This document shows positions 2,888 through 63,081 of a stretch of DNA of 64,000 nt, piece after piece. Origin of the DNA: an uncultured Candidatus Saccharibacteria bacterium (GTDB taxonomy: Bacteria; Patescibacteriota; Doudnabacteria; UBA920); NCBI GenBank assembly GCA_964521955.1, contig CAZFTX010000001.1, forward strand, positions 42,386 to 106,385, written 5' to 3'. The number at the start of each line of letters is the position of its first letter. Position 1 is the stretch's first letter. A program made the translations under genes and the position numbers. The notes under the pieces are model-generated. The model was not told where the DNA came from, made no database searches, and worked only from the letters and a program-made list of their open reading frames with translations.

Positions 2888-3811
2888 CTATATCTTTAAA
2901 TACTTACGTATAGCCATCATTGTAGAAACTATGGATAGCAATAAAGAAATTACTATCAACATAGCCAACAAATACCAATAACTAAAAACGTTCTGATTAA
3001 AAATAGTCAGTTCGGGGTTAATGAAAATGGCCACCTTAGGCATTATGCGGGTAAACACAGGTATAAACAAAAGTGCGGTAATTACCGTAGCAAAAATACT
3101 ATAAAGCATACTTTCCACCAAAAACGGCCCGCGAATATACCAATTAGTTGCACCCACTAAACGCATAATTTCCACTTCTTCTTTACGGTTGTAGATAGTC
3201 AAAGTAATGGTGTTAAAAATAACTAAAATAGCAATTAAAGAAAAGATTCCAATTAAACCCACGCCAAAAGAAACAATAAACTTCAAAATTCTATTCAGTC
3301 TCTCAATGGCACTTCTGGTTCTTTCGTCTTCATAACTTACTTTATCAATAAAATCCTGATACTTTTGATCTTGCAAAATTTCATGAATTTGAGGATAGTC
3401 CGAAAGTTCAAAAGCTTTAACATTCAAAGTTGCAGGCAGCGGGTTTTCTGTAAGTTCATTTAAAGAAGCTTGTATGAGAGGATCGTTTGCATGTTTCACT
3501 TTGAAGTCTTCAAAAGCTTGAATCGCACTGGTATATTTTATTTCTCTCACCTTTGGGTTAGATTTAATTTCGTCCTGAATACTAAAAATCCTTTCCTCAG
3601 CAAGGCCAATTTTAAAGTAAACACTTATATCTACGGTGTTCTCTATGGTTTTAAGCGAATAACTGGTGATTGCAAAAAGTAAGAATAAAATAGAAAAAAT
3701 TACCAAAGTTATACTCATAACCATGGTTGCGGTTGCTGAAAGCCAGAGATTGCGCCAAAAATTTACAAACCCGGTTTTTATAATTCTAAAAAATGAAATA
3801 GAGTCCAACAT
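2888..3811 (-). CDS. ftsX: cell-division ABC transporter permease FtsX
   Basis: 307 aa with four TM segments and a periplasmic loop. Lies directly downstream of ftsE. Confidence 0.85.
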   Translation of the reverse strand: MLDSISFFRIIKTGFVNFWRNLWLSATATMVMSITLVIFSILFLLFAITSYSLKTIENTVDISVYFKIGLAEERIFSIQDEIKSNPKVREIKYTSAIQAFEDFKVKHANDPLIQASLNELTENPLPATLNVKAFELSDYPQIHEILQDQKYQDFIDKVSYEDERTRSAIERLNRILKFIVSFGVGLIGIFSLIAILVIFNTITLTIYNRKEEVEIMRLVGATNWYIRGPFLVESMLYSIFATVITALLFIPVFTRIMPKVAIFINPELTIFNQNVFSYWYLLAMLIVISLLLSIVSTMMAIRKYLKI

Positions 3812-3927: not shown

Positions 3928-4605
3928 TTACAACTTATATTTACCTTTTTCTTGCTCCAAAGTAACTTTACCGTCTTCTATGGTAATAACTCGTTTTTTT
4001 ATTTTATTTACCAAATCGGCCGCGTGAGTAGCAAGAATAACCGTGGTTCCAAGGGTATTTATTTTTAAAAGTAAATCCAAAACTTCTTGGGCGTTTATTT
4101 CGTCCAAATTACCAGTTGGTTCGTCAGCCAAAAGTAAAACCGGCCTGTGAGACAAAGCCCTGGCAATTGCAACCCTTTGCTGTTCTCCTCCCGACATTTG
4201 AGTGGGAAAACTGTCATGTTTACGAGAAAGTCCCACTAAGTCTAAAATTTTCGGAACATCTTCAATAATTTTAGACATTTTATGCCCACAAACTTCCATA
4301 GCAAAAGCTACGTTTTCAAAAGCTGTTCTTTTCGGTAAAAGCTTAATATCCTGAAAAACTACCCCAATTTTTCGCCTTAAGTAAGGTAAGTCAGTTTTTC
4401 TTACCAAAGAAATGTCTATATCGTCAATTAAAATTTTCCCCCCATCTATACCTTCTTCCCCAATTATCAACTTTAAAAGCGTGGATTTACCGGCGCCACT
4501 TCTACCCACAAGCGAAACAAACTCTCCATGATGAATGTCTAAATTCAACCCATGCAAAGCCTTGTTATTTCCGTAATGTTTAGTAACGTTTTGAAATTTT
4601 ATCAT
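3928..4605 (-). CDS. ftsE: cell-division ATP-binding protein FtsE
   Basis: Walker A GRSGAGKST, ABC signature LSGGEQQR and Walker B LLLADEP. Start moved to the MIKFQNV methionine, because the longer ORF reads into a GC-rich structured spacer. Confidence 0.9.
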   Translation of the reverse strand: MIKFQNVTKHYGNNKALHGLNLDIHHGEFVSLVGRSGAGKSTLLKLIIGEEGIDGGKILIDDIDISLVRKTDLPYLRRKIGVVFQDIKLLPKRTAFENVAFAMEVCGHKMSKIIEDVPKILDLVGLSRKHDSFPTQMSGGEQQRVAIARALSHRPVLLLADEPTGNLDEINAQEVLDLLLKINTLGTTVILATHAADLVNKIKKRVITIEDGKVTLEQEKGKYKL

Positions 4606-4805
4606 AAGAAACCACTCCGACGTCCGCCAAAGGCGGAGTCCGGAGCCCCGATCCAAAGGCGTCGGGGCAGAGACGAAGATTACACAAATACTTCAAGATG
4701 TATTATACCAAATTTATAAAAATGATAAAAGAAAATTAGGTCGCCTTTACTTAACAACAAAGTTATGATTAAAAAACTTACCGCACCAAAGTCGAAAAAG
4801 ATGCG

Positions 4806-5852
4806 TTAGTTGAGAATATTAAAAAGCTTGATTCGCTTTCTTAGGTTTTGCGACCGACAGTGTTTTAAAACCCCGAGATAAGAACTTACTGTTTGTTTTA
4901 ATTTTTCAAGACTTATCTCTTCCCGTGTAAATTTAACAATTTTTCCATCGAGCTTTCTTAACATTCTATTTTTTGCTTTAGTTCGTAGGGACTGTCTATA
5001 AGGTAAAACTACATAGCCAAGAAAGTCTATTCCACGAGTTAGCTTATTCAAAAAAATCTTTTTAGGGTGCAGATTAAGTTTTAAATTTTCAGACAGGTAC
5101 GTTTCCATCTGGGGGATCAAGCCTTCCAGATATTTTTTATTATCGCTTACCATCACGAAATCATCTGTATAGCGTATGTAATATCTTACTTTCAGTTGAT
5201 GCTTAATAAATTTATCAAAGTTGTCGAGGTAAATGTTAGCGAATATTTGTGAAGTTAAGTTGCCAATCGGCAGTCCCTTGGCTAAATTTACTTGAAAACT
5301 ATCAATAATTTGATCAAGTAATTTCAATGCATTATGATCCGTGACCCGCCGTCGCAAGAGATCTTTGAGAATCGTATGGTCAACAGAAGCAAAAAATTTT
5401 CTAATGTCACATTTTAAGTAATAACATGGGCGGCGGTAATTCTGGCTAACTCCTTTTGTAAAGTTTTCCAAACGTTTAACCGCACGGTGAGTCCCTTTTC
5501 CGATACGGCAGGAGTAAGAATCGTAAATCAAGGTATGATCGAACAACGGGTATAAATTCCGAAAGACGGCATGATGAACAATTCTGTCACATACAGTTGC
5601 TTTGTGGATCTGGCGCAACTTAGGATCAAAGATAAGAAATGACTCATAAGGCTGGTGGGTATAAGTGTGGTTGACTAATTCATGGCGTAATTGAAAAAGG
5701 TTGTCCTCGAGGTTGCGTTCAAAATTCTGAACGTCAGGCTTACCCCGTTTACCAGCTTTAAATTCCTGCCATGACAATAATAAATTATCTAAACTAGTAA
5801 TTTGTTCAAATAATGTATGAGTTACATCCATAATGAAATTCCTATAATACAA
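4806..5852 (-). CDS. DGR-type reverse transcriptase
   Basis: 348 aa, compact for an RT. Motifs: FDPKLRQIHKATVCDRIVHHA (RT1/2), SYSCRIGKGTHRA, IRYTDDFVMVSD (YxDD catalytic) and GYVV thumb. It sits next to a cognate TR/VR. An alternative start is M8 (MDVTH, 5831). Confidence 0.9.
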   Translation of the reverse strand: MYYRNFIMDVTHTLFEQITSLDNLLLSWQEFKAGKRGKPDVQNFERNLEDNLFQLRHELVNHTYTHQPYESFLIFDPKLRQIHKATVCDRIVHHAVFRNLYPLFDHTLIYDSYSCRIGKGTHRAVKRLENFTKGVSQNYRRPCYYLKCDIRKFFASVDHTILKDLLRRRVTDHNALKLLDQIIDSFQVNLAKGLPIGNLTSQIFANIYLDNFDKFIKHQLKVRYYIRYTDDFVMVSDNKKYLEGLIPQMETYLSENLKLNLHPKKIFLNKLTRGIDFLGYVVLPYRQSLRTKAKNRMLRKLDGKIVKFTREEISLEKLKQTVSSYLGVLKHCRSQNLRKRIKLFNILN

Positions 5853-6167
5853 AAAACTTACGACCTATATAAAACAAATTACGAATATACAAAAACTTTC
5901 CCAAAAAGTGATAAATACGCCTTAGGCGAAAAATCTAAAGCAATTATTTTAGAGCTGCTAGAATTGCTAGTTGAGGCAGAAAATGCCAAGCGCGAATGGA
6001 AAGAACCAATTTTGGCAAAAGCCAGCAACAAATTAGCAGTTTTAAAACTTATGTTCCGGCTCGCCAATGAAACCAAAATCTTAGACAGCAAAAAATATTT
6101 GTCTTTAACCGACAAAAGTTTGGAAGTCGGCCGGATGCTCGGCGGCTGGCTAAAATCCGTTAAGTAG
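5817..6167 (+). CDS. avd: Avd-like accessory variability determinant (four-helix-bundle protein, TIGR02436-like)
   Basis: 116 aa and basic. Motifs FPKSDKYALGEKSKA and ...GRMLGGWLKS match the Avd / 23S-IVS four-helix-bundle family. It is encoded on the opposite strand to the RT and target, and its 5' end overlaps the RT start by 15-36 nt. Confidence 0.75.
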   Translation: MSYIHNEIPIIQKTYDLYKTNYEYTKTFPKSDKYALGEKSKAIILELLELLVEAENAKREWKEPILAKASNKLAVLKLMFRLANETKILDSKKYLSLTDKSLEVGRMLGGWLKSVK

Positions 6168-6216
6168 CCAAGGGCTCGGGTAAATCCCGAACCCTTGCGC
6201 CAAAAGAATAGACGTA

Positions 6217-6346
6217 ACGAGAAGCGACCCACGGCCGAACCGAAGTTGTGATTGGCATTATCGGTCCAGTTGTTGTCGAAGTTGAGCTTGTCATCGTTCC
6301 AGTACCAGTACAGCGAGTTGTTGAACTGGTCATCGGCATCCGGGTG
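6217..6346 (-). repeat. DGR template repeat (TR)
   Basis: About 130 bp, about 85% identical to 6746-6875. Of the 20 differences I could align, 19 sit where the TR has A on the minus strand (T on the plus strand as given). The TR reads as the Asn-rich template ...DADDQFNNSLYWYWNDDKLNFDNNWTDNANHNFGSAVGRFS. Confidence 0.85.
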
Positions 6347-6677
6347 ATTGTCTGGCTTCATCTAAAGCTGAAAAAGAAAAAATATCCTAATCCAGTCCCC
6401 AGGCCAAGCCGAGGAAAAATTTGTGGCGTCTTAAAACGCACTAAAGCCAGACAAGTAGTGTCTATCCTTTCTAAACTCACTTCTTAAAAGCAAAAGCTAT
6501 TTAAGAACTCTGGTTTAAAAAGTAAGGATTTCGGCGACCCTAATCCGTGGACAAGAGTGCATTAGCCTAATTTCCTTTTAAGTATACAGTAATTGTGGAT
6601 AACTAAAAAATTTTGCGAAGCAAGTATCAAGTATAGAAACATATGCAGAGGAAGTAATAAAATTTAAACAAAACAAA

Positions 6678-6730
6678 AGGACTTGGGAATCAAGAATCAA
6701 AAACAAATAGATTCATGATCCCAAGTCCTA
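6678..6730 (-). promoter_or_regulatory. stem-loop immediately 3' of the VR (DGR target-recognition hairpin)
   Basis: Inverted repeat aggacttggg(a)atc ... gat(c)cccaagtcct, a roughly 13-bp stem around a 25-nt AT-rich loop, about 15 nt beyond the target stop. It is absent from the TR copy. Confidence 0.6.
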
Positions 6731-6742
6731 AGTATCGAGCGA

Positions 6743-6875
6743 CTACGAGAAGCGACCCACGGCCGAACCGAAGCAGTGAAAGGCATCATCGGCCCAACCG
6801 CTGCCGAAGCCGAGCTCGTCATCGCTCCAGTACCAGAACAGCGAGTCGACGAACTGGTCATCGGCAACCGGGGCG
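6743..6875 (-). repeat. DGR variable repeat (VR) at the 3' end of the target gene, including the conserved IMH-like block
   Basis: The VR encodes ...VADDQFVDSLFWYWSDDELGFGSGWADDAFHCFGSAVGRFS*. Every TR AAC (Asn) position is a different residue in the VR. The last 27 nt (cttcggttcggccgtgggtcgcttctc on the coding strand) are identical in TR and VR and GC-rich, as expected for the conserved 3' IMH block. Homology stops there. Confidence 0.85.
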
Positions 6876-7866
6876 TAGCTGTTAGCCGGGCAGTCGATGC
6901 CTAGGTACTCGAACTTCGACATCCGGTCGGGCTGAGTAGCTATAGTGCTGCCGGTCATGATGCAGTCCTGGGGGAATTGGTTCTCCGCAAGAACGACCTT
7001 GACCCGGGACAGCCGTACCGAATGGCCGCTGTAGCTGTTGCCGGTGTTGGCACCGGCCGGAGCGAAGCAGAAGTCATCGTCCGTGGTCTCATGGAGTTTC
7101 TGCCACGTGATGATGCCTGCGGGTGTGAGCCGGACGTACTGGGCCGAAAGCTGCCCGTCGCGCCTGTTCTTGAAGCCGTGCTTGCCGAAAACCTTGCGGT
7201 AGGCCTTGCCGACTTCGGGAACGAAGTTGGCGACAACGGAGGCATAGGCTTCGCGTCCTTCGTCCGTGGTAGCGAGCGGATCGCCTTTGATGCCAAACAA
7301 CTTGGCCAGCGTGGAAAGCTTAAACCAGATCGGGATACCTTCGGTACCTTCTCCGGCCTTGGCTTCCTTGGCGAGCTTGAGGGCGGTGGCGACATTCAGC
7401 GTGGTCTTGGAGCCGAACATGTCGCGAGCGAGAGCCTGGTAGGCCGAGACATCTTCTTCCACCGGCAGGTATTTCCAGTCCGGCGGCGGCGTGAAGTGCT
7501 TTTCGGTCGAGATCTCGCCGTCGTAGAGTCCGGCAATGAACGGCCGGGCAATGGCGAAGGTTTCGGGTTGCAGGAAACAGCAAGCCTCGATCTGATCGAG
7601 CAGAACGTAAAACGGCACCTCGCTAGCCATCTGGTTGAACATGCCAGGCTCGCGGGTTTCCAAAGACAGGAACTGTCCGAGGGTTTCCGGCGTCAGCCAA
7701 GTCACTTGGAACGGCAAGCTGTCCTTGTAAGCCTGGAGAGCCTTGGCCAGTTCGGCATCAAACCGCGTGTTGTCACCTTTGTTTACGCGATCGGTTGCTT
7801 GACCGAGCGTGCGCAGGAGAGACTCCCGCTGTTCCAAAGCACCCTGATTTACAGTAGCGCTCATGA
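6743..7866 (-). CDS. DGR target (variable) protein with C-terminal VR, probably a C-type-lectin/FGE-like ligand-binding fold
   Basis: GC-rich ORF (about 57% GC against about 34% for the genome). Preferred start is the ATG at 7866, preceded by AAGGAGG. The ORF track extends to a TTG at 7996, which would add a hydrophobic leader MKLAFLLAILIAG. The C-terminal 45 aa are the VR. Confidence 0.8.
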
Positions 7867-8066
7867 TTGACCTCCTTAGTGGTCTGTTGTGTGCAAGTTG
7901 ATTTAGCCACGAGGACAAGTCCCCGAAGCTGGTTCTCACTTCCGATGAAATGAGCGTTCCGGCTATCAAAATCGCCAGCAAGAACGCTAATTTCAAAGGT
8001 TTAAAATTAGCGTATAATTATACCTGTTTTTTTAACTCCTGTCAAGGACTCCCTTTTCACAGAAAT

Positions 8067-9158
8067 TTACTTGGCAGTTTTTTCCAAATATTTTCCCACA
8101 AATTCGTCTAACTCCCCTTCTAAAACACCTTCAGGATCAGTTGACTCAAAGTTAGTTCTGTGGTCTTTAACCATTTTGTAAGGATGCAGAACGTAAGAAC
8201 GAATTTGGTTTCCCCATTCAGCGGACTTAAACTCACCCCTTAACTCAAGCTTTTCTTTTTGCAACTTTTCTTCTTCTAAAGCTTTTAATTTAGACATTAA
8301 AATTTTCATAGCCAATTCACGATTTTGATGCTGGCTTCTTTCATTTTGAATATTCACCCTTATTCCGGTTGGAATATGAGTAATGCGTATGGCCGAATAT
8401 GTTGTGTTTACACTCTGTCCCCCGTGACCAGAAGCCGTATTGGCTTCAATTTTTAAATCCTTAGGATTAACTTCAAACTTTTCTTTTTCTTCCAAAACCG
8501 GAAGTAGCTCTAAAAGCGCAAAAGAAGTCTCCCTTGTATGAGCCGGATTAAAAGGTGAAAGCCTAACCAAACGGTGCACCCCCGCTTCGCTTTTAAAAAG
8601 TCCGTAAGCAAAAGGACCTTTTACTTCCACCACTGCCGTTTTAACTCCGCCTTGTTCACCCTTTGAAAGTTCCAAAATTTCCGTGCTAAAACCTTTTTTT
8701 TCACTGTAACGCAAAAACATTCTTAAAAGCATCCCTGCCCAGTCTTGTGCATCTACCCCGCCGGCGCCACTGTGAAGGGAAAAAATTGCGCTATGGTCGT
8801 CATACTTTTTAGACAGCAAAGCCACAAAACGGTTTTTACTATACTCCTTTTCCAAAGTTTCAACTTGCTCTTGTAAATATTTTTTTGTTTCTTCTGACTC
8901 GTCTGTATTTTGCTTAACCAAATTTAAAGTTTCCTGAATATTTTTTTCTAAAGTATTCCAAAACTCTACAAATTTTTGCAGTTGGTTAAACTCCTGAGAA
9001 ATACTCTGTGCATGCGCGGAGTCGTTCCAAAAGTCAGAACCCTGCATTAAGTCTTGCAATTCCAAAGCTCTCTGCTCTTTTTGCGGCAGGTTTAAATGTG
9101 ACTTTATTTCTTCAACTTCTAAAAGTAGCTTTTCTAACTTTGAAATCAAATCTTTCAT
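8067..9158 (-). CDS. prfB: peptide chain release factor 2
   Basis: 363 aa. GGQ motif (ASGHGGQSVNTT) and the RF2-type SPF tripeptide region (RLSPFNPAHTRETSFA). Single uninterrupted ORF; no +1 frameshift site is evident. Confidence 0.85.
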   Translation of the reverse strand: MKDLISKLEKLLLEVEEIKSHLNLPQKEQRALELQDLMQGSDFWNDSAHAQSISQEFNQLQKFVEFWNTLEKNIQETLNLVKQNTDESEETKKYLQEQVETLEKEYSKNRFVALLSKKYDDHSAIFSLHSGAGGVDAQDWAGMLLRMFLRYSEKKGFSTEILELSKGEQGGVKTAVVEVKGPFAYGLFKSEAGVHRLVRLSPFNPAHTRETSFALLELLPVLEEKEKFEVNPKDLKIEANTASGHGGQSVNTTYSAIRITHIPTGIRVNIQNERSQHQNRELAMKILMSKLKALEEEKLQKEKLELRGEFKSAEWGNQIRSYVLHPYKMVKDHRTNFESTDPEGVLEGELDEFVGKYLEKTAK

Positions 9159-16566: not shown

Positions 16567-16654
16567 TCCCACATGAGACAACTTTCATCCATTGTCATTA
16601 TTATAAGCATTACTTCCTTCCAGGCAATGGGCTGAGTTCTTTAAAGTATTGTAA

Positions 16655-16693
16655 CCGTCCCGCCCTTGCTACAAAGGGCGAGACGGTTTTTTG
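16655..16693 (+). terminator. rho-independent terminator-like hairpin
   Basis: ccgtcccgccctt / aagggcgagacgg, a 13-bp stem with one mismatch, followed by TTTTTTG. Confidence 0.5.
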
Positions 16694-16766
16694 TTCCCTG
16701 CTAAGGGCTACGTTGTAGCCTTTGGCTGGTTACAAAACCAAAAAGACAACTTGAGAGGAGAGGACA

Positions 16767-17090
16767 ATGAACACACTTAGTTTTTCGGGAGATGGCCTCA
16801 TAACGCTTCAAGAACAGCGAGCGTTACTAAGCCGCCAAACCTTCCGGATCGTAGCCGGTCAAAATGAACAAGCGTTCTCCGTGGTTTCAGTCAGCCAGCA
16901 TTCTGTTGGCATTTTCTTAGTGGAATTAGTACACCAAGACAACATTCCCTGGTATGGAATCTTGATGATTCAGGATAATCCCGGACAAACAATCATGGTC
17001 CTACAATCCGAAGCGCCACAAGACCGCAACGATTGGAACCGTCTCATTCACCAGGCCAGGCTGATTTCCCAAGGCAACCCCAACCACTAA
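16767..17090 (+). CDS. hypothetical small protein (GC-rich island 2)
   Basis: GAGAGGAGAGG SD-like purine run before the ATG. 107 aa with no recognised domain. Confidence 0.45.
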   Translation: MNTLSFSGDGLITLQEQRALLSRQTFRIVAGQNEQAFSVVSVSQHSVGIFLVELVHQDNIPWYGILMIQDNPGQTIMVLQSEAPQDRNDWNRLIHQARLISQGNPNH

Positions 17091-17100
17091 GCAAAACGAA

Positions 17101-17140
17101 AATCGGCGCCCTCCACATGGAGGCGCGCCGATTTTGATTT
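17101..17140. terminator. bidirectional rho-independent terminator
   Basis: cggcgccctcc-acat-ggaggcgcgccg GC-rich hairpin flanked by gattttgatttt. Lies between the convergent 16767..17090 (+) ORF and the giant gene (-). Confidence 0.6.
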
Positions 17141-20100
17141 TAATCATCTAAAGATATATTTTGATTCACTACGCCTTGATTGTCTACTTTTATTATCTGA
17201 TTTTTCAACAAAATAACTTTATCTTCAACTGTCTGCATTACCCTAAGTATATATTCCCCTTTTGGCGCTTTTAAGAAAAATCTTCCTTTTTCATTTGTCA
17301 TTGCCTTACCCAATACAACAGAGGGGATTGATTTAGGACTAATCTCAATTATTAAGAAGTGTGTAGGATGATTTTGGCTAGTTAAGGAGCCCCAAAGTTT
17401 ACGATGTGGAATAAACCTTTTTAGAACAAATAATAACCCAAAAACACTCACAAAAATTAAGCCAAATAAATTTGGTTTCAACAACAGAGTCAGAAGGGAA
17501 AAACTTGCACTTCCCCAAAATATTATTTCAAGAATCACATGAAAGAAAGTTTCTAAACGTGGATGGAAATTTACATATTTTAACTTACCAGTCTGGTTCC
17601 AATCAAATGCTAAAGGGTCCATGGGAATATTCGGTGACAATACTTCCCCACTTTTTGTAATTTGCATTAATTCACCATGATATAAATTATCAAAAACCCC
17701 GTCCATTTTACCCAAAATCCTAACAGAAGGAAATTGATAATTGGTTTTTTTTGCTTTTATCAAAAAATTTCCTGGCTTATCCATAAAACCAAAACGTCCG
17801 CTTAAATCGGTTATGGCTTGCTCCGTAACTTTACCTGTTTCAAAATTTATCATTTCTACAATTACTGGATCCAAAGGCTGCTTAGTAACAGAGTCATACA
17901 CTGTACCCCAATAGCGACGTCTTCGTCTTAAACCAAAACTACTCATTAAACCTTGTAATGTCGCAACAATATGGAGCCAAAATTCGGTTAAATTGGTAAA
18001 GTTACCAAGCAACCCATATTTTGCCAAACTATATTCCATTACCAAAGAAGAAGGCGCTACAACCAAAGCAGAAACTGAAACTGCTAATTTTGTTTCAAAT
18101 TCTTGTAAAAATAAAGTACTTCCTTGTTTTAGAATTTTTTCTAAAGGTTGTATTGAAGTCTTGGAAACTGTAACTATTGTATCCTTAATAAAGTTGCCGG
18201 CGCTACTCAAACCTGAAACTAAGCCTTCTGAAACCGAAGCTACACTACTGGAAATGTTTTCAAATAAATTTGCTAAAGGTAGGTTGTTTGAAAGAGGCCC
18301 AGGACTAGCATCTGGCACTGGGGGAGTGTTTTGAGGAACCACCACTACAGGAGTTTCAATAGGTGGGTTTTCAATAACAACCACGGGAGGAGAAACTTGT
18401 GGCTCAACAACATTTACCAGTGCATCTTCAGCAGGTTCAACCAACACGCTAGCAAAACTTTCTACACTATTTACACCTCTCGTAACTTTAACTCTTATAG
18501 TATAAGCACCCGCTTTTGCAAAATTACAAACATTTCTATGAGTAACAAATTCGTTAGTTGTTCTTCGGGTTAACTCGTAAATGCCGTCATTTGTACAGTC
18601 ATACTCATAAGTAATTTGCCCTTTTGCTGTCCCAGAAACCGCAACTCTTAAACTTACGTTATTTAAAGGCTCCTCCCCAACCAATTTATCTGACCAAATC
18701 TTGCGATCCTTAGAAACAGTTAGTATAGCTGCTAAGGGCAAATTTTCAACCAAAGGAGGGTTAGGAGTTGGAGTTTTATCTTTAACCAAAAGCTGAATAC
18801 CGGAACTCACAGTTTGTTTTGCTTGCATTTGACTATTAAAATATTTTACATAAACTGTATAAAAACCAGCTCGACATGTTTTTTGTTCACACAAATTCCA
18901 CTGAGTGGACGTTGTGAATAATTGCAAAACCGCATTTTTAAAATCTGGCGTGTTTGAAATTGCCATATATGCAGTATCTGCGGTCGCTTGAAGAGTTAAA
19001 GTAGTTAGACTATCTACAGTTGTGCTCGCTCCAGCGTTTATAACTACACCAAATCCTCCCTCTAAAGGAGTTGGTACACCACCACCACCTCCGCCTCCTC
19101 CACCGCCTCCAGACCCTTCATCGTCTAAAGTGGAACAAGCAGCTGTTGACTGAGTTGTTGTTGAAGTGTAAGCAGTTTCTATATCACTACTGTTTCTAGC
19201 TTTAACTACAAAATCATATGAAGTACCACAAGTCAAGCCAGAAAAAATCTGAGATGTTGAAGAGCTCCAATCAGGACTAGTTGATGCAGTTGCATTTAAA
19301 ACATAGTATTCTGTCCCTGCCGGATTACTATTTGCATTCCACGAAGCAGTCAACTGTGTTTGAGAGTCTTGATTTAGACTTAAAGAAGTTGGTAAGTTTG
19401 CCAAAGTATAAATTGAAATTGTGACAGTAGAAGCATAATTACCGGCAACATCAAACACGTCGGCATAGAAGGTATAGGGAGTATTGGGAGTTAAGCCAGA
19501 AGAAAGCCAAGACAAAGCAGAAGTCGCGGAAGAATTTGTACCTGTAGTGGAGTTATTAAAAACGTAAGAAGCTGTTGCCAAACCAGACAAAGAATCCGAA
19601 GCTCCTGAAATTGTGGCCGTCAAAGAAGTTGGTGAGGTAGTTGCTAAAGTCAAACTACCTGCAGTAGGAACGACAGTGTCTAACTTAAAAGCAACCGCAC
19701 CAGAATTAGCTGTAGCATATGAAGAATTGGCTCCCAAATTATCTATAGTTTTCACTCGCCAATAATAACCATCTGAAGAATCGCTTAAAACCTGTCCAGT
19801 TGTACCCGTTGTGTAAGTTCCCGTACTGGTTGCTTGCCCAACTGTAAAACTAGCGCTACCTTGAGTCGCTGTTGCCGAAGTATAATCCAATAACAAAGTA
19901 GAAAAAGAGGAACTTGTAGAAATTTCAATCTTATATCGCACCGTATTGCCAACATCAGGGTCAGTAAGATTGAAAGTAAAAGTAGGAGTATTATCGTTTA
20001 TCCAACTTCCACCCACAACCGTTGATGGCCCAAGCGAAGTTGGGCTATTGGGTGCGTTATCAGAAATTAAGCTTAACTCTGGTAAATTTGCATACGAATC

Positions 20101-36673: not shown

Positions 36674-37729
36674 TTACTTCGGAATCATTCCAAAATCAGC
36701 AGGGACTAAAACATCCTTCAAAGTTTCCAAATCCTCAACTACAACACCTGTGCCTCTAACCACACAAGTAAGCGGATCTTCCGCAATAGTGATTGGCATA
36801 GCGGTGGCCTCTCCAACTAGTTTGTCTAAATCTCTTAAGAGCGCCCCGCCCCCGGCTAGTATTATTCCTCGGTTCATAATGTCAGAAATTATTTCCGGCG
36901 GAATCTCTTCTACAACACTTTTAATACTATTAACAATTGACTTTAAACTATGCATTAAAGCTTCCCTAGCTTGAGTATCTGAAATTGTTACTTCTTTAGG
37001 TAATCCAGTAACCAAATCCCTTCCGCGCATTTGGGTATACATTGCCTGTTCTTGGGGATAAGCACTCCCTACTCTAATTTTAACGTCTTCAGCAGTTCTC
37101 TCTCCCAAAAGTAAATTAAAATGCTCCCTTGCATACTGCATAATATTTTGATTCATTTCATCCCCGGCAATACGTAAAGACTTGGAAACCACTATTCCAC
37201 CCAAAGAAATAACTGCTATTTCCGTTGTTCCTCCACCAATATCAACTATCATAGAACCAGTTGCGTCTTGAACCGGCAACCTACTACCAATAGCTGCAGC
37301 CATAGGTTCTTCTATTAAAAACGCGGCTGATGCTCCTGCGTTTATAGCAGCATCTACCACAGCTCTTTTTTCTACTTCCGTTACACCGGAAGGTATTCCA
37401 ATAACCACCCTGGGTCTGCGTAAAAAAGCGTAAGTCTGACTATGGACTTTGTCTATAAAATACCTCAGCATGGCTTCTGTCACTTCAAAATCCGAAATCA
37501 CCCCGTCAACCAAAGGACGAGTCGCTACTATATAAGGAGGAGTACGACCAACCATTTTTCTGGCATCGTTACCAATTGCCAAAATTTGTTTAGTCCTTTG
37601 ATTAATAGCCACAACACTAGGCTCGTTAATCACAATCCCTTTGCCTTTTACATACACAAGAGTATTAGCAGTACCAAGGTCAATGCCAATGTCTTTTGAA
37701 AAATGTTGGTAGAGTCTATCAAAAATCAT
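36674..37729 (-). CDS. mreB: rod shape-determining actin homolog MreB
   Basis: IGIDLGTANTLVYV phosphate-1 motif and DIGGGTTE phosphate-2 motif. Start set to the ATG for MIFDRLY; the GTG-extended ORF would run into a palindrome. Confidence 0.95.
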   Translation of the reverse strand: MIFDRLYQHFSKDIGIDLGTANTLVYVKGKGIVINEPSVVAINQRTKQILAIGNDARKMVGRTPPYIVATRPLVDGVISDFEVTEAMLRYFIDKVHSQTYAFLRRPRVVIGIPSGVTEVEKRAVVDAAINAGASAAFLIEEPMAAAIGSRLPVQDATGSMIVDIGGGTTEIAVISLGGIVVSKSLRIAGDEMNQNIMQYAREHFNLLLGERTAEDVKIRVGSAYPQEQAMYTQMRGRDLVTGLPKEVTISDTQAREALMHSLKSIVNSIKSVVEEIPPEIISDIMNRGIILAGGGALLRDLDKLVGEATAMPITIAEDPLTCVVRGTGVVVEDLETLKDVLVPADFGMIPK

Positions 37730-37738
37730 TTGTGTTTT

Positions 37739-37774
37739 ACCCAGCACCACTTTTTTAAAAAAGTGGTGCTGGGT
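37739..37774. terminator. perfect 17-bp inverted repeat (acccagcaccactttttt|aaaaaagtggtgctgggt), probably a bidirectional terminator
   Basis: Exact palindrome read in the sequence, about 110 nt downstream of proS and just upstream of the mreB start. The T/A runs form the centre. Confidence 0.55.
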
Positions 37775-37882
37775 TTATCTTTCTTTTCATTTAGCTAAAA
37801 TTAAAAATATCCAAAAAACCAGATTTTGAATATTTTTAATGGGTTTTATTTTAAACCGAAAATTTTGTCGGGAAAATTTTAA

Positions 37883-43712: not shown

Positions 43713-43764
43713 AATTTAGACATCCCCCCGAGCGAATCCCGACCAGATCGGGACGAACCGAGGG

Positions 43765-44706
43765 GTGCCCAATAAACCTATGAATTTAAAAAAAATTCTT
43801 GTCTTAATCGGACCCACAGCTTCGGGCAAGTCTGAACTAGGTGTCAGTCTCGCTAAAAAATTCAATGGAGAAATTATTTCTGCTGACAGTCGCCAAATTT
43901 ACAAAGATATGGACTTAGGTACAGGTAAGGTGGAGGGTAAATGGAAAAAAGATATTTTTATTTACAAAAATATCCCTCACCACTGCATTGATTTTATAAA
44001 TCCAAAAGTTAGGTTCTCTGTAGCACGTTTTCAAAAAAATACCAAAAAAATAATTGCCGATATTTTAAAGCGCGGCAAATTGCCTATTTTAGTAGGAGGA
44101 ACCGGCCACTACATAGACGCGGTTGTTTACAATATACAACTGCCAAACGTAAAACCCAATCTTGCCTTAAGAAAAAAATTAGAGCAATTCCCTACCGAAC
44201 GCCTATTTGCACAAATTAAAAACAAAGACCCAATTAGGGCAAAAACTATCGACCCTCACAACCGTCGTCGCCTCATCCGTGCCCTGGAAATAATCCTTAC
44301 CACCGGCAAACCGGTTCCTGTTCTACCTACAAGCTACGAGCTACAAGCTAACAACTATGATTCCTTATGGCTCGGCATTACCCTCCCCCAAGAAACACTC
44401 TATAAAAAAATAGAAAAACGCCTGAAGGAAAGACTTAAGTTAGGAATGATTAAAGAAGTTGAAAAACTTAAAAAATCAGGGCTCTCCTACAAACGCCTTG
44501 AGTCTTTTGGTTTGGAGTATAAATTCATAGCACTGTATTTACAAAAGAAAATTACTTACAAAGAAATGGAAGAAAAACTTCTCTTTGCAATTAAACACTA
44601 TTCCAAAAGACAACTCACTTGGTGGAAAAAAAACAAGGAAATTCACTGGATAAAACCAAACTTAACCAAAGCTACTAAACTGACTCAACAATTTTTATCC
44701 CAATAG
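43765..44706 (+). CDS. miaA: tRNA dimethylallyltransferase
   Basis: P-loop GPTASGKS and SADSRQIYKDMDLGTGK are canonical MiaA. Confidence 0.9.
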   Translation: MPNKPMNLKKILVLIGPTASGKSELGVSLAKKFNGEIISADSRQIYKDMDLGTGKVEGKWKKDIFIYKNIPHHCIDFINPKVRFSVARFQKNTKKIIADILKRGKLPILVGGTGHYIDAVVYNIQLPNVKPNLALRKKLEQFPTERLFAQIKNKDPIRAKTIDPHNRRRLIRALEIILTTGKPVPVLPTSYELQANNYDSLWLGITLPQETLYKKIEKRLKERLKLGMIKEVEKLKKSGLSYKRLESFGLEYKFIALYLQKKITYKEMEEKLLFAIKHYSKRQLTWWKKNKEIHWIKPNLTKATKLTQQFLSQ

Positions 44707-45272: not shown

Positions 45273-45413
45273 ATGACTGACAACTATCAACCCTTGCCTG
45301 AAGAGGAACCCTCTGAAACCAATGTCATACCAGCACAGTCGCAAGAACCCCAGTCAGCCGATCCCCATCCAGCCGCCGACCACACTTCTGTGCCCGAGGA
45401 TTACCATTGGTAG
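45273..45413 (+). CDS. hypothetical small acidic protein (GC-rich island 3)
   Basis: In-frame ATG (MTDNYQPLPEEE...) 7 nt after the previous stop. Weak support. Confidence 0.25.
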   Translation: MTDNYQPLPEEEPSETNVIPAQSQEPQSADPHPAADHTSVPEDYHW

Positions 45414-45429
45414 ACTCTCGACACTCGCA

Positions 45430-45473
45430 AAACGCCGCCTCCGACACTCTCGGAAGCGGCGTTCCCTTTTTTC
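45430..45473 (+). terminator. rho-independent terminator
   Basis: aacgccgcctccg-N7-cggaagcggcgtt stem followed by cccttttttc. Confidence 0.6.
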
Positions 45474-56659: not shown

Positions 56660-56771
56660 TAGAGATTCCCTCTTTCCCTCTCCTGCCTTGCGGGAGAGGG
56701 TGTCCCGAAGAGACGAGTGAGGGCAAATAATTATATCGACAATTCTTAAATAAAATAAGTCACCATTTTTT

Positions 56772-56801
56772 ATCCCGCCCCTATACAGGGCGGGATTTTT
56801 G
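56772..56801 (+). terminator. rho-independent terminator of clpC
   Basis: atcccgccc-ctataca-gggcgggat plus TTTTT. Confidence 0.7.
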
Positions 56802-56804
56802 GTA

Positions 56805-56833
56805 TTTACAAAACCTCTCATATATTGTATAAA
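56805..56833 (+). promoter_or_regulatory. sigma70-like promoter (TTTACA-N17-TATAAA) for the island-4 ORF
   Basis: Read directly; positioned 30 nt upstream of AAGGAGG-ATG. Confidence 0.4.
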
Positions 56834-56863
56834 TATCATTAACCGATCCAAGGAGGATCACTT

Positions 56864-57181
56864 ATGCCCCATCAACCCGCTATCGCCACTCAGGTTTCCT
56901 GGTTAGCGATAAGAAGGATTCGGGAACAAACCGATTCCACCAACAAAAGTCATCCTGGGCAGTCTCACGCCAGCGCACGTAAAGCAGAATTGCGCTCTGC
57001 TCGCAGAAAAGAACATGGTGCGAGCATTGCGAAAATCGGACTGCAACAGGTCATGGAAGAAGAGGACAAGCGGTTTCAAAACGCCAAAAAATTCATGACC
57101 GGAGGCACCAAACCGACCACTATCACCGCCGCCAATCCTGTCATGAAAGCTCCGTCGTATTCAGGTCGTTACTACTACTGA
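56864..57181 (+). CDS. hypothetical small basic protein (GC-rich island 4)
   Basis: CAAGGAGG SD; 105 aa; no recognised domain. Confidence 0.4.
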   Translation: MPHQPAIATQVSWLAIRRIREQTDSTNKSHPGQSHASARKAELRSARRKEHGASIAKIGLQQVMEEEDKRFQNAKKFMTGGTKPTTITAANPVMKAPSYSGRYYY

Positions 57182-57200
57182 TCGACGACCACTCCGCCAC

Positions 57201-57246
57201 TCACCTCCCCGCACGTAGCCTAGTTGCGGGGAGGTGTTCTTTTTTT
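57201..57246 (+). terminator. rho-independent terminator
   Basis: cacctccccgca-N11-tgcggggaggtg, a perfect 12-bp stem, then ttcttttttt. Confidence 0.7.
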
Positions 57247-62098: not shown

Positions 62099-62233
62099 CG
62101 ACCTCTCCAAATACTTACATATTTTACTTAAAAAAAGCCTATTGGTCAATAAAAATACGGACGGGGGTCAGAGGCCTTAGCCTTCAGCCCGCCGTCCGCG
62201 AATTTCGGTCTTGCGAGAGAACTGTGGTTGCGG

Positions 62234-62827: not shown

Positions 62828-63081
62828 CATTTCCTTCTCCTTCTTCATTTCAGATTTCGGACACAACAGGCAAGGGTCAAAAAACCACTACCCGTTGTGT
62901 CCAACTTAAAAAGAAGAAAACTAACCGCAAATTGTTAAAGTTCATTCGCAAATCACATTTCAGGCTTAAATCCGTCTACCTTTGGTAGACAAACTTAGGC
63001 ACCAAACCGTGATCTAGCATTATAGCACTTTTTTTGCTCCTTGTCAATGGTGATCTTTTCATACTTGCTATGCTAAGATTT

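Follow-up and report, generated by a model that had tools for sequence, protein, structure and literature searches.

The way in which a diversity-generating retroelement (DGR) finds its variable repeat (VR) and replaces it with cDNA is the least understood step of mutagenic retrohoming. The cis signals that have been dissected come from one phage element and are absent or different in most DGRs; high-confidence GC-rich inverted repeats, in particular, have been found in just 34% of DGRs (Wu et al. 2018, PMC5758913). The 64,000-nt stretch analysed here (the window), taken from contig CAZFTX010000001.1 of an uncultured Candidatus Saccharibacteria bacterium, holds a complete DGR on its minus strand in which the VR and the template repeat (TR) finish in exactly the same sequence. 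What, then, could distinguish the recipient copy from the donor? Our analysis points to a conserved stem-loop located just past the stop codon of the target gene. We give a probability of roughly 55% to the reading that this stem-loop is a lineage-specific signal marking the VR, which in the sub-lineage of the window would also terminate transcription, and we prefer this reading to one in which the stem-loop is a terminator and nothing else. The features on which the argument depends are the following.

6743..7864, minus strand: DGR target gene, 373 aa, with a Shine-Dalgarno sequence, an ATG start and a TAG stop at 6745-6743
6745..6872, minus strand: VR, 128 nt, 84% identical to the TR
6217..6344, minus strand: TR, 128 nt, at an offset of 528 from the VR
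6745..6773, minus strand: adenine-free, GC-rich terminal block resembling an IMH (initiation of mutagenic homing) site, the same in VR and TR, coding for FGSAVGRFS
6678..6729, minus strand: three-segment VR-proximal stem-loop, 19 pairs, 11-nt loop, 37% GC
6660..6677, minus strand: T-rich tract TTTGTTTTGTTTAAATTT, abutting the stem and read from the sequence as a terminator-like tail

The repeat end and the stem-loop beyond it

Comparison of the VR (6872 to 6745) with the TR (6344 to 6217) reveals 20 mismatches, 19 of them at TR adenines, which is the pattern that defines a TR/VR pair. Since the mismatches fall at adenines of the downstream copy, it is this copy that is the TR. All 32 TR adenines occupy codon position 1 or 2, and 19 of the 32 are altered in the VR. 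The sole difference that does not involve an adenine is a TR C that reads T in the VR at 6797, within a codon in which both adenines have been changed as well (AAC to GGT).

The final 29 nt, CTTCGGTTCGGCCGTGGGTCGCTTCTCGT, are shared exactly between the VR (6773 to 6745) and the TR (6245 to 6217). This block has a GC content of 66%, higher than that of the VR (62.5%), the TR (53%) or the window (38%), and it lacks adenine altogether, an outcome with a chance of ~1e-5 given the adenine frequency of 0.32 in the remaining TR. The last VR/TR mismatch lies at 6774, and the block bounds the A-to-N differences at their 3′ side in the manner of an IMH. Retrieval of target homologues gave 26 loci, from which 15 distinct related cassettes (16 with the window) were compared; in six of the nine distinct cassettes with a readable TR end, this end is adenine-free over 29-38 nt. 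The exceptions are L019, where the adenine-free run is 13 nt, and L005 and L022, where an adenine interrupts it. The identity of the block in VR and TR is attributable to its lack of adenines together with constraint on a conserved C-terminus, as nearly all full-length homologues finish in FGSAxGxxS-like residues (36-sequence alignment). With no adenine in this part of the TR, mutagenic reverse transcription would leave the block unchanged and FGSAVGRFS preserved, and by analogy with the IMH the block could provide the perfect homology that anchors the 3′ end of cDNA exchange.

A block that is the same in VR and TR cannot on its own tell recipient from donor. Specifically, the sequence difference between IMH and IMH* to which directionality is ascribed in BPP-1 is absent here, all 29 nt being identical, and where IMH and IMH* are the same, recognition must reach further downstream (Wu et al. 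2018, PMC5758913). An identical block thus places the mark just beyond it. Past the block, the VR runs on as AGTCGCTCGATAC and the TR as TACGTCTATTC, with homology stopping at the T of the TAG codon. At the first differences the VR of the window reads GTAGTC, for which relatives have GTAGTG or GTAGTA, and the TR of the window reads GTTACGTCT, for which 9 of the 12 distinct family TRs that were read have GTTRCGTCT. The downstream mark would accordingly comprise, on the VR side, a motif of the GTAGTG type at the stop codon followed by the family stem-loop and, on the TR side, GTTRCGTCT followed by an unrelated hairpin.

The VR-side stem-loop itself spans 6729 to 6678 (52 bases) and begins 13 nt past the stop codon, which is 15 nt past the end of homology. 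The stem has 11 perfect bp (AGGACTTGGGA/TCCCAAGTCCT) and, once a single bulge and a single mismatch are allowed, 19 pairs in all; the loop is TATTTGTTTTT (11 nt). The predicted DNA fold has a free energy of -15.9 kcal/mol (z -7.7) and the RNA fold one of -28.8 kcal/mol (z -6.2); none of 200 shuffles was as stable, and the stem-loop ranks 2nd in stability among 23,084 AT-rich 60-nt windows of the 64 kb. As DNA, the two strands of the window copy are similar (sense -15.6, antisense -15.3 kcal/mol). Neither BLAST nor a covariance model (described below) detected a second copy of the element in the window, and the pattern of its 5′ arm is absent from the viral contigs scanned. In an Rfam scan of 4500-8200 (E <= 1), the sole match was a chance miRNA on the hairpin, with 20.6 bits against a gathering threshold of 70.

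These results refine an earlier, sequence-only reading of the locus. That reading had described a 27-nt identical GC-rich end; identity and GC-richness stand, while the true length is 29 nt, the string given corresponding to 6773 to 6747. Its statement that the copies diverge wholly after the block is borne out, the sequences parting after the T of the stop codon. It had also placed a 13-bp stem 15 nt past the stop: a stable hairpin is indeed present, as the proposed folding check confirmed (0 of 200 shuffles match it), with 11 perfect base pairs and an onset 13 nt past the stop, the 3′ arm having been quoted with one extra c. The assertion that the hairpin is missing from the TR holds for its sequence, as judged by BLAST and the covariance model, but the TR has a different hairpin of its own 20 nt downstream. 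The sequence-only reading was to be abandoned if no stable stem formed or if the same hairpin lay behind the TR; a stable stem does form, and the hairpin behind the TR is not the same.

The inverted repeat and the identical block might also have arisen by chance, or be remnants of the duplication event behind VR and TR, as AT-rich intergenic DNA often contains inverted repeats. Fold z-scores of -6 to -8, the improbability of the adenine-free block given above, and the conservation and covariation of the element across cassettes whose proteins are 42-76% identical make this explanation hardly credible. A chance origin was rejected on the fold z-scores, the covariation and a level of conservation above that of the coding sequence (CDS).

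Conservation, covariation and strand asymmetry of the stem-loop

In the 11 closest distinct relatives, the stop codon is followed at 5-12 nt by a stem-loop of this build, and L005, L022, L027 and L028 have a related variant past the stop; the VR-adjacent element is thus found in 15 of 15 distinct relatives. The seven closest relatives have near-identical sequence (GGGACTTGGGrTCTTGAATCT, loop, AGATTCTyGATyCCCAAGTCCC). In the more distant L007, L012, L017, L023 and L026, the three helical segments are retained and their sequences altered complementarily, while the most distant members (L005, L022, L027, L028 and L008) carry a related, CCTTGG-type version. Across the family the element measures 45-60 nt, the loops of the relatives are T-rich and 3-12 nt long, and TT.TT internal loops are conserved within the stem. 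Conservation in orthologous cassettes, which had been proposed as a check of the hairpin, is therefore found in 15 distinct relatives and is accompanied by compensatory changes.

With respect to covariation, a covariance model (R1) was built from 11 copies and used to search the window and 23 loci, 197,757 bases in all, on both strands. The model matched solely at the VR-side position, with weak untrained matches at the expected site in L005/L006, L022 and L028, and the window copy received 76.1 bits when scored in sense orientation, as against 26.4 in antisense. In the R1 alignment, which is fitted to the model and so favours structure, paired cells make up 96.9% and compensatory changes are seen in 7 of 16 pairs; 0 of 500 shuffles reached these values, and slid controls were much lower. 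An independent RNAalifold run gave 5 compensatory pairs out of 16. The MAFFT-only hairpin alignment was partly out of register and was not used for pair counts.

Moreover, in every relative the stem-loop is more similar to the window copy than is the CDS. The contrast is pronounced in L021, where identity to the window is 90% for the element but falls to 65% in the CDS and 25% in the downstream flank, and in L026, where the corresponding values are 83%, 67% and 6%. The element is also asymmetric between strands. With RNA parameters, 15 of 16 loci have the more stable fold on the sense strand, with margins of up to 10 kcal/mol that stem from G.U and U.U pairs; in distant members, DNA folds of -0.7 to -6 kcal/mol compare with sense-strand RNA folds of -7 to -22 kcal/mol.

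A further feature of the sense strand is periodic. From the stop codon through both arms, relatives display 5-8 yTTGr motifs every 7-10 nt, within ~75 nt past the target stop (loci L005, L007, L008, L012, L017, L022, L023, L026, L027 and L028), and this array gives rise to the conserved TT.TT internal loops of the stem. Consecutive TTG spacings of 7-10 nt form runs of 4-6, which are equalled by 0-6 of 2000 dinucleotide shuffles per locus, and the summed run statistic is 44 as against a shuffle mean of 6.7 and maximum of 14. On the sense strand there are 2-6 copies of TTG[GA], as compared with 0-1 on the antisense strand, and no 75-nt window in the 64 kb has a TTG run greater than 3.

One might suppose from these figures that the ~6-7 yTTGr motifs of the sense strand are primary and the inverted repeat secondary, the array serving, speculatively, as a docking site for an oligomeric single-strand nucleic-acid binder; the binder could be an Avd pentamer with the reverse transcriptase (RT), or some unrelated factor that regulates the target mRNA. 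In addition to the excess over shuffles, the strand bias and the lack of comparable runs elsewhere in the window, this proposal draws on L005, L022, L027 and L028, in which the array begins at the stop codon, ahead of the stem, and on L027 in particular, which scarcely folds (RNA -7.0, DNA -0.7 kcal/mol) yet retains six TTGG motifs. The window copy presents the opposite case: its periodicity is largely lost (a run of 1), yet its stem is near-perfect and the most regular of all. The helical segments between motifs covary, which indicates that pairing itself is selected. Furthermore, TTG periodicity and helices of 5-6 bp parted by TT.TT loops are in part one thing described twice, and the former could be a mere signature of the latter. 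We regard a docking array in place of a functional stem-loop as improbable.

Probable termination, competence and the proposed marking of the VR

Directly behind the stem, the window has TTTGTTTTGTTT, in which 10 of 12 bases are T, the arrangement of an intrinsic terminator. The stem-loop could then be merely an intrinsic (Rho-independent) terminator and 3′-end stabiliser of the target mRNA, without a role in target recognition, and would shield the TR RNA unit from transcription off the strong target promoter. Such an explanation is consistent with the T-run found directly behind the stem in 11 of 16 distinct cassettes, with RNA folds of -27 to -29 kcal/mol and the G.U-based advantage of the sense strand, and with the retention of the stem-loop by orphan targets that have no DGR. 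A minority of DGRs do carry terminators after the IMH (Wu et al. 2018, PMC5758913), and the window contains other long hairpins of a possible-terminator kind, such as 37717-37776 and 62845-62904.

Nonetheless, the T-run is absent in five lineages that keep the element (L005, L022, L026, L027 and L028), and L005, L022, L027 and L008, the last of the L027 lineage, have a separate canonical terminator 65-75 nt downstream. The element thus persists in these four, where termination would be supplied elsewhere. Neither the conserved TT.TT internal loops nor the TTG periodicity is needed for termination, and a simple terminator scan made no call on the stem-loop, the loop of which exceeds 8 nt. Judged from the aligned sequences, conservation of the element, which is better than that of the CDS and far better than that of the flank, is beyond what a generic terminator needs. 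We consider a role in termination alone unlikely, if by no means negligible. A terminator acting on the plus strand was rejected, there being no T-run behind the stem on that strand. The two hairpins named above and two more, at 16649-16708 and 17085-17144, are very stable possible terminators with near-perfect stems of 15-17 bp, and all four differ in build from the VR-side element.

The sequence-only reading had further taken the hairpin as a sign that the element is competent for retrohoming rather than a relic, a deduction that fails. Three of four orphan targets (L017, L021 and L023; L024 is the fourth) have the stem-loop, L021 sharing its contig with L004, and the downstream sequence covered for these orphans, in which no TR, leader or RT is present, amounts to 1.3 kb in L017, 4 kb in L021, 4 kb in L023 and 1.1 kb in L024. 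In L018, the element, TR and leader are kept, with a truncated avd, no RT and two weakening substitutions in the stem. Since orphans and L018 alike retain the element, its presence is no evidence of cassette activity. Competence of the window cassette is suggested instead by its intact RT and Avd genes, by the adenine specificity of 19 of its 20 mismatches and by an in-frame VR. Orphan VRs were also compared with family TRs for signs of diversification in trans, and here orthologous divergence swamps the signal.

Several observations weigh against a VR-marking role. The orphans L017, L021 and L023 keep the VR-side element with no leader, TR or RT nearby downstream, and near-identical contigs from different samples (L005/L006/L014, L007/L010, L012/L013 and L008/L009) show no VR differences. 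In the window and ten other cassettes, the T-run abuts the stem as it would in an intrinsic terminator. The sense-strand bias and the weak DNA folds fit an RNA element better than a DNA cruciform. Finally, characterised DGR hairpins have a GC-rich stem of 7-10 bp, a GRNA loop of 4 nt and a distance to the VR of 4-34 bp (Guo 2011, PMC3240598). Here, in contrast, 19-20 pairs are arranged in three segments at 37% GC, and the T-rich loop, which lacks the GRNA sequence, measures 11 nt in the window and 3-12 nt in relatives. In BPP-1, lengthening the loop by 2 nt abolished or severely reduced function, and exchanging GC for AT pairs reduced it severely (Guo 2011, PMC3240598).

Even with these points taken into account, we favour the stem-loop as a lineage-specific mark of the VR. 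What is observed directly, at the 3′ boundary of the VR of an intact DGR, is the anatomy of the stem-loop, its VR specificity, its conservation and covariation and its strand asymmetry; the parts ascribed to it in homing and termination are inferred. In functional terms, the stem-loop would be this lineage's equivalent of the one by which BPP-1 makes retrohoming into the VR more efficient, and its active form may be either sense-strand DNA or RNA. In the sub-lineage that includes the window, the U-tract directly behind the stem would most likely end the target transcript ahead of a separately promoted TR RNA.

A more far-reaching version can be put forward only tentatively, and we think it rather doubtful. 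The lineage may have exchanged the IMH/IMH* asymmetry and the GRNA hairpin for a strand- and sequence-specific recipient mark made up of an imperfect palindrome, ~7 yTTGr repeats every 7-10 nt and conserved T.T/U.U internal loops. This mark would be read by an oligomeric component of the DGR, for instance an Avd pentamer bound to RT, on sense-strand single-stranded DNA or RNA, and would act together with a structured 5′ domain of the template RNA that is 230 nt long, previously undescribed and supported by 29 covarying pairs, and with a 3′ hairpin that also covaries. If true, this would represent a distinct mode of target recognition for mutagenic retrohoming.

As regards annotation of the window, the stem-loop is an ordinary result, being the expected 3′ boundary of a DGR target. 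The family, on the other hand, supplies a second, clearly different VR-flanking signal with comparative support. Its natural variants separate the stem-loop from the terminator, and its IMH-like ends are identical, which pushes recognition downstream. Both the stem-loop and the structured RNA domains that flank the TR are concrete elements for mutation in a reconstituted system, and they may be of use for DGR-based targeted mutagenesis in AT-rich hosts.

The template side of the cassette and comparison with known DGR signals

The remaining parts of the cassette, which bear on how the template RNA could be produced and recognised, are listed below.

8017..8045, minus strand: consensus sigma-70-like promoter of the target gene, 12/12 hexamer matches, 17-nt spacer
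6581..6588, minus strand: promoter-like TGTATACT (TGTATAAT in relatives), preceding the TR leader and conserved in the cassette alignment
6345..6575, minus strand: conserved structured region (leader), presumed 5′ domain of the DGR template RNA, abutting the TR upstream
6169..6197, minus strand: TR-side hairpin CAAGGGUUCGGG-AUUUA-CCCGAGCCCUUG, 20 nt past the TR end
5817..6167, plus strand: avd (accessory variability determinant), 116 aa, between TR and RT
4806..5831, minus strand: DGR RT, 341 aa, RVT_1 E 2e-20

The order target-VR, TR, inverted avd, RT places the cassette in architecture B3, defined by the order TR-(avd)-RT (Wu et al. 2018, PMC5758913), and an inverted avd is also seen in L019, L020 and L022. 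The window has a single VR. Avd scores 81.8 bits against NF033474 (DivGenRetAVD; cut-off 80) and matches PF22296 (bAvd) with an E value of 4e-22. The RT contains IGNLTSQ at residue 189 and YTDD at 221, in agreement with the [LIV]GxxxSQ and YxDD motifs of the DGR clade. The avd and RT genes diverge, with a 15-nt overlap of their starts (5817-5831); with such an overlap, either the promoter of each gene is contained within its neighbour or RT expression depends on read-through of the TR transcript, which would cross avd in antisense. The target promoter is situated ~150 nt before the start codon, and this arrangement implies a long 5′ untranslated region and probably strong target expression. 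A simple promoter scan made no call at 6581..6588, though the position and conservation of TGTATACT suggest a promoter for the TR RNA.

The leader that would form the 5′ part of this RNA (6575 to 6345, ~230 nt) is predicted by RNAalifold to contain 53 pairs, 29 of them compensatory, in an alignment of 11 cassettes (A8). Conserved motifs include TAGGyTAAT (TAGGATAAT in L007), GCCGAAAT, AACCAGA (AACAAGA in L022) and GAyACTACTT. No Rfam family matched the leader in the scan of 4500-8200. This leader probably represents the template RNA's 5′ domain.

At the other end of the TR, the hairpin at 6197 to 6169 falls in the gap that separates the TR from the stop of avd, a convergent gene. It recurs in the same place in five close relatives, with a different sequence in each, and 10 of its 23 pairs are compensatory across the six cassettes. 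It contains a U.G pair whose plus-strand equivalent is mismatched (C-A), an indication in favour of the template-RNA strand. The hairpin appears, from where it lies, to correspond to the structured spacer (Sp) of BPP-1, which recruits RT-Avd and primes cDNA synthesis (PMC12875486). Both are structured segments that closely follow the TR on its 3′ side in the template-RNA strand; in contrast to the BPP-1 Sp, with which it has no sequence similarity, the hairpin described here lies between the TR and the convergent avd end.

With respect to the target protein, 44 homologues were found, all metagenomic and one of them named Candidatus Doudnabacteria, a group of the candidate phyla radiation. No Pfam or NCBIfam domain was detected in this family of 44 members, and a confident AlphaFold model of the target protein had no Foldseek match in the PDB. 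Resemblance to a C-type lectin is weak and confined to the C-terminal part, the N-terminal ~230 residues being helical and unassigned. The region 6217-7864 is distinguished by its GC content (54-61% in the target gene and 53% in the TR, with 38% for the window), the RT, avd and flanking genes being AT-rich; adenine avoidance, codon design and foreign origin could each account for the GC-rich target and TR. Elsewhere in the AT-rich window, strongly folding patches of 55-65% GC are present at 43713-43772, 45409-45468, 56665-57236 and 62157-62216, and these may be structured RNA genes or other GC-rich islands.

How does the VR end of this cassette compare with known systems? The sequence-only reading had invoked the IMH-plus-hairpin architecture of mutagenic homing, and the comparison upholds this in part. 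The DGR is well formed, and it has an adenine-free block and a conserved, VR-specific stem-loop within the published range of 4-34 bp. The remainder of the analogy does not carry over: the block is the same in VR and TR, stem and loop are unlike those of characterised hairpins, the element resembles a terminator, and the TR is not hairpin-free.

With the hairpins described by Guo (2011, PMC3240598), the element shares its position, as an inverted repeat just past the VR and stop codon (15 nt), its restriction to the VR side, the hairpin behind the TR being unrelated, and the conservation of its stem structure, to which an unusual conservation of sequence is added here. A terminator-like appearance was noted by the published authors themselves (PMC3240598). 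Apart from the stem and loop dimensions considered above, the conserved TT.TT internal loops, the strong strand asymmetry and the weak DNA folds of distant members set the present family apart. The terminal block agrees with the BPP-1 IMH and predicted IMHs (PMC5758913) in being a GC-rich, adenine-free repeat end that limits A-to-N changes at the 3′ side and encodes a constant C-terminus; it departs from the IMH/IMH* pair of BPP-1 in its identity between VR and TR, as has been noted for some DGRs (PMC5758913). Intrinsic terminators likewise have a stable stem-loop past a stop codon followed by a U-rich tract, as in the window, but the stem here is unusually long and interrupted, its loop is 11 nt, it is better conserved than the CDS, and it is kept where the U-tract is missing.

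A precedent for lineage-specific variation is provided by the GRA-triloop hairpins of nanoarchaeal DGRs, which are also VR-proximal variants under extra constraints (Paul et al. 2015, PMC4372165). Those hairpins are short, GC-rich and located inside the target open reading frame, whereas the element described here is long, AT-rich and intergenic. An RT-query scan of genome contigs identified two distant DGRs that were taken as outgroups. L001, from a Moraxellaceae metagenome-assembled genome (MAG) with two VRs, has GC-rich stems of 7-8 bp with 3-4-nt loops (3600-3680 and 4200-4270), and L002, from a Nanoarchaeota MAG, has GTCGGC-GAA-GCCGAC inside the target open reading frame (4555-4600), the GRA triloop of PMC4372165. 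As these outgroups carry canonical hairpins at the same place, the position is general and the form specific to the lineage; the VR-side stem-loop is, in this respect, a new lineage-specific form of the VR-proximal hairpin already known from DGRs.

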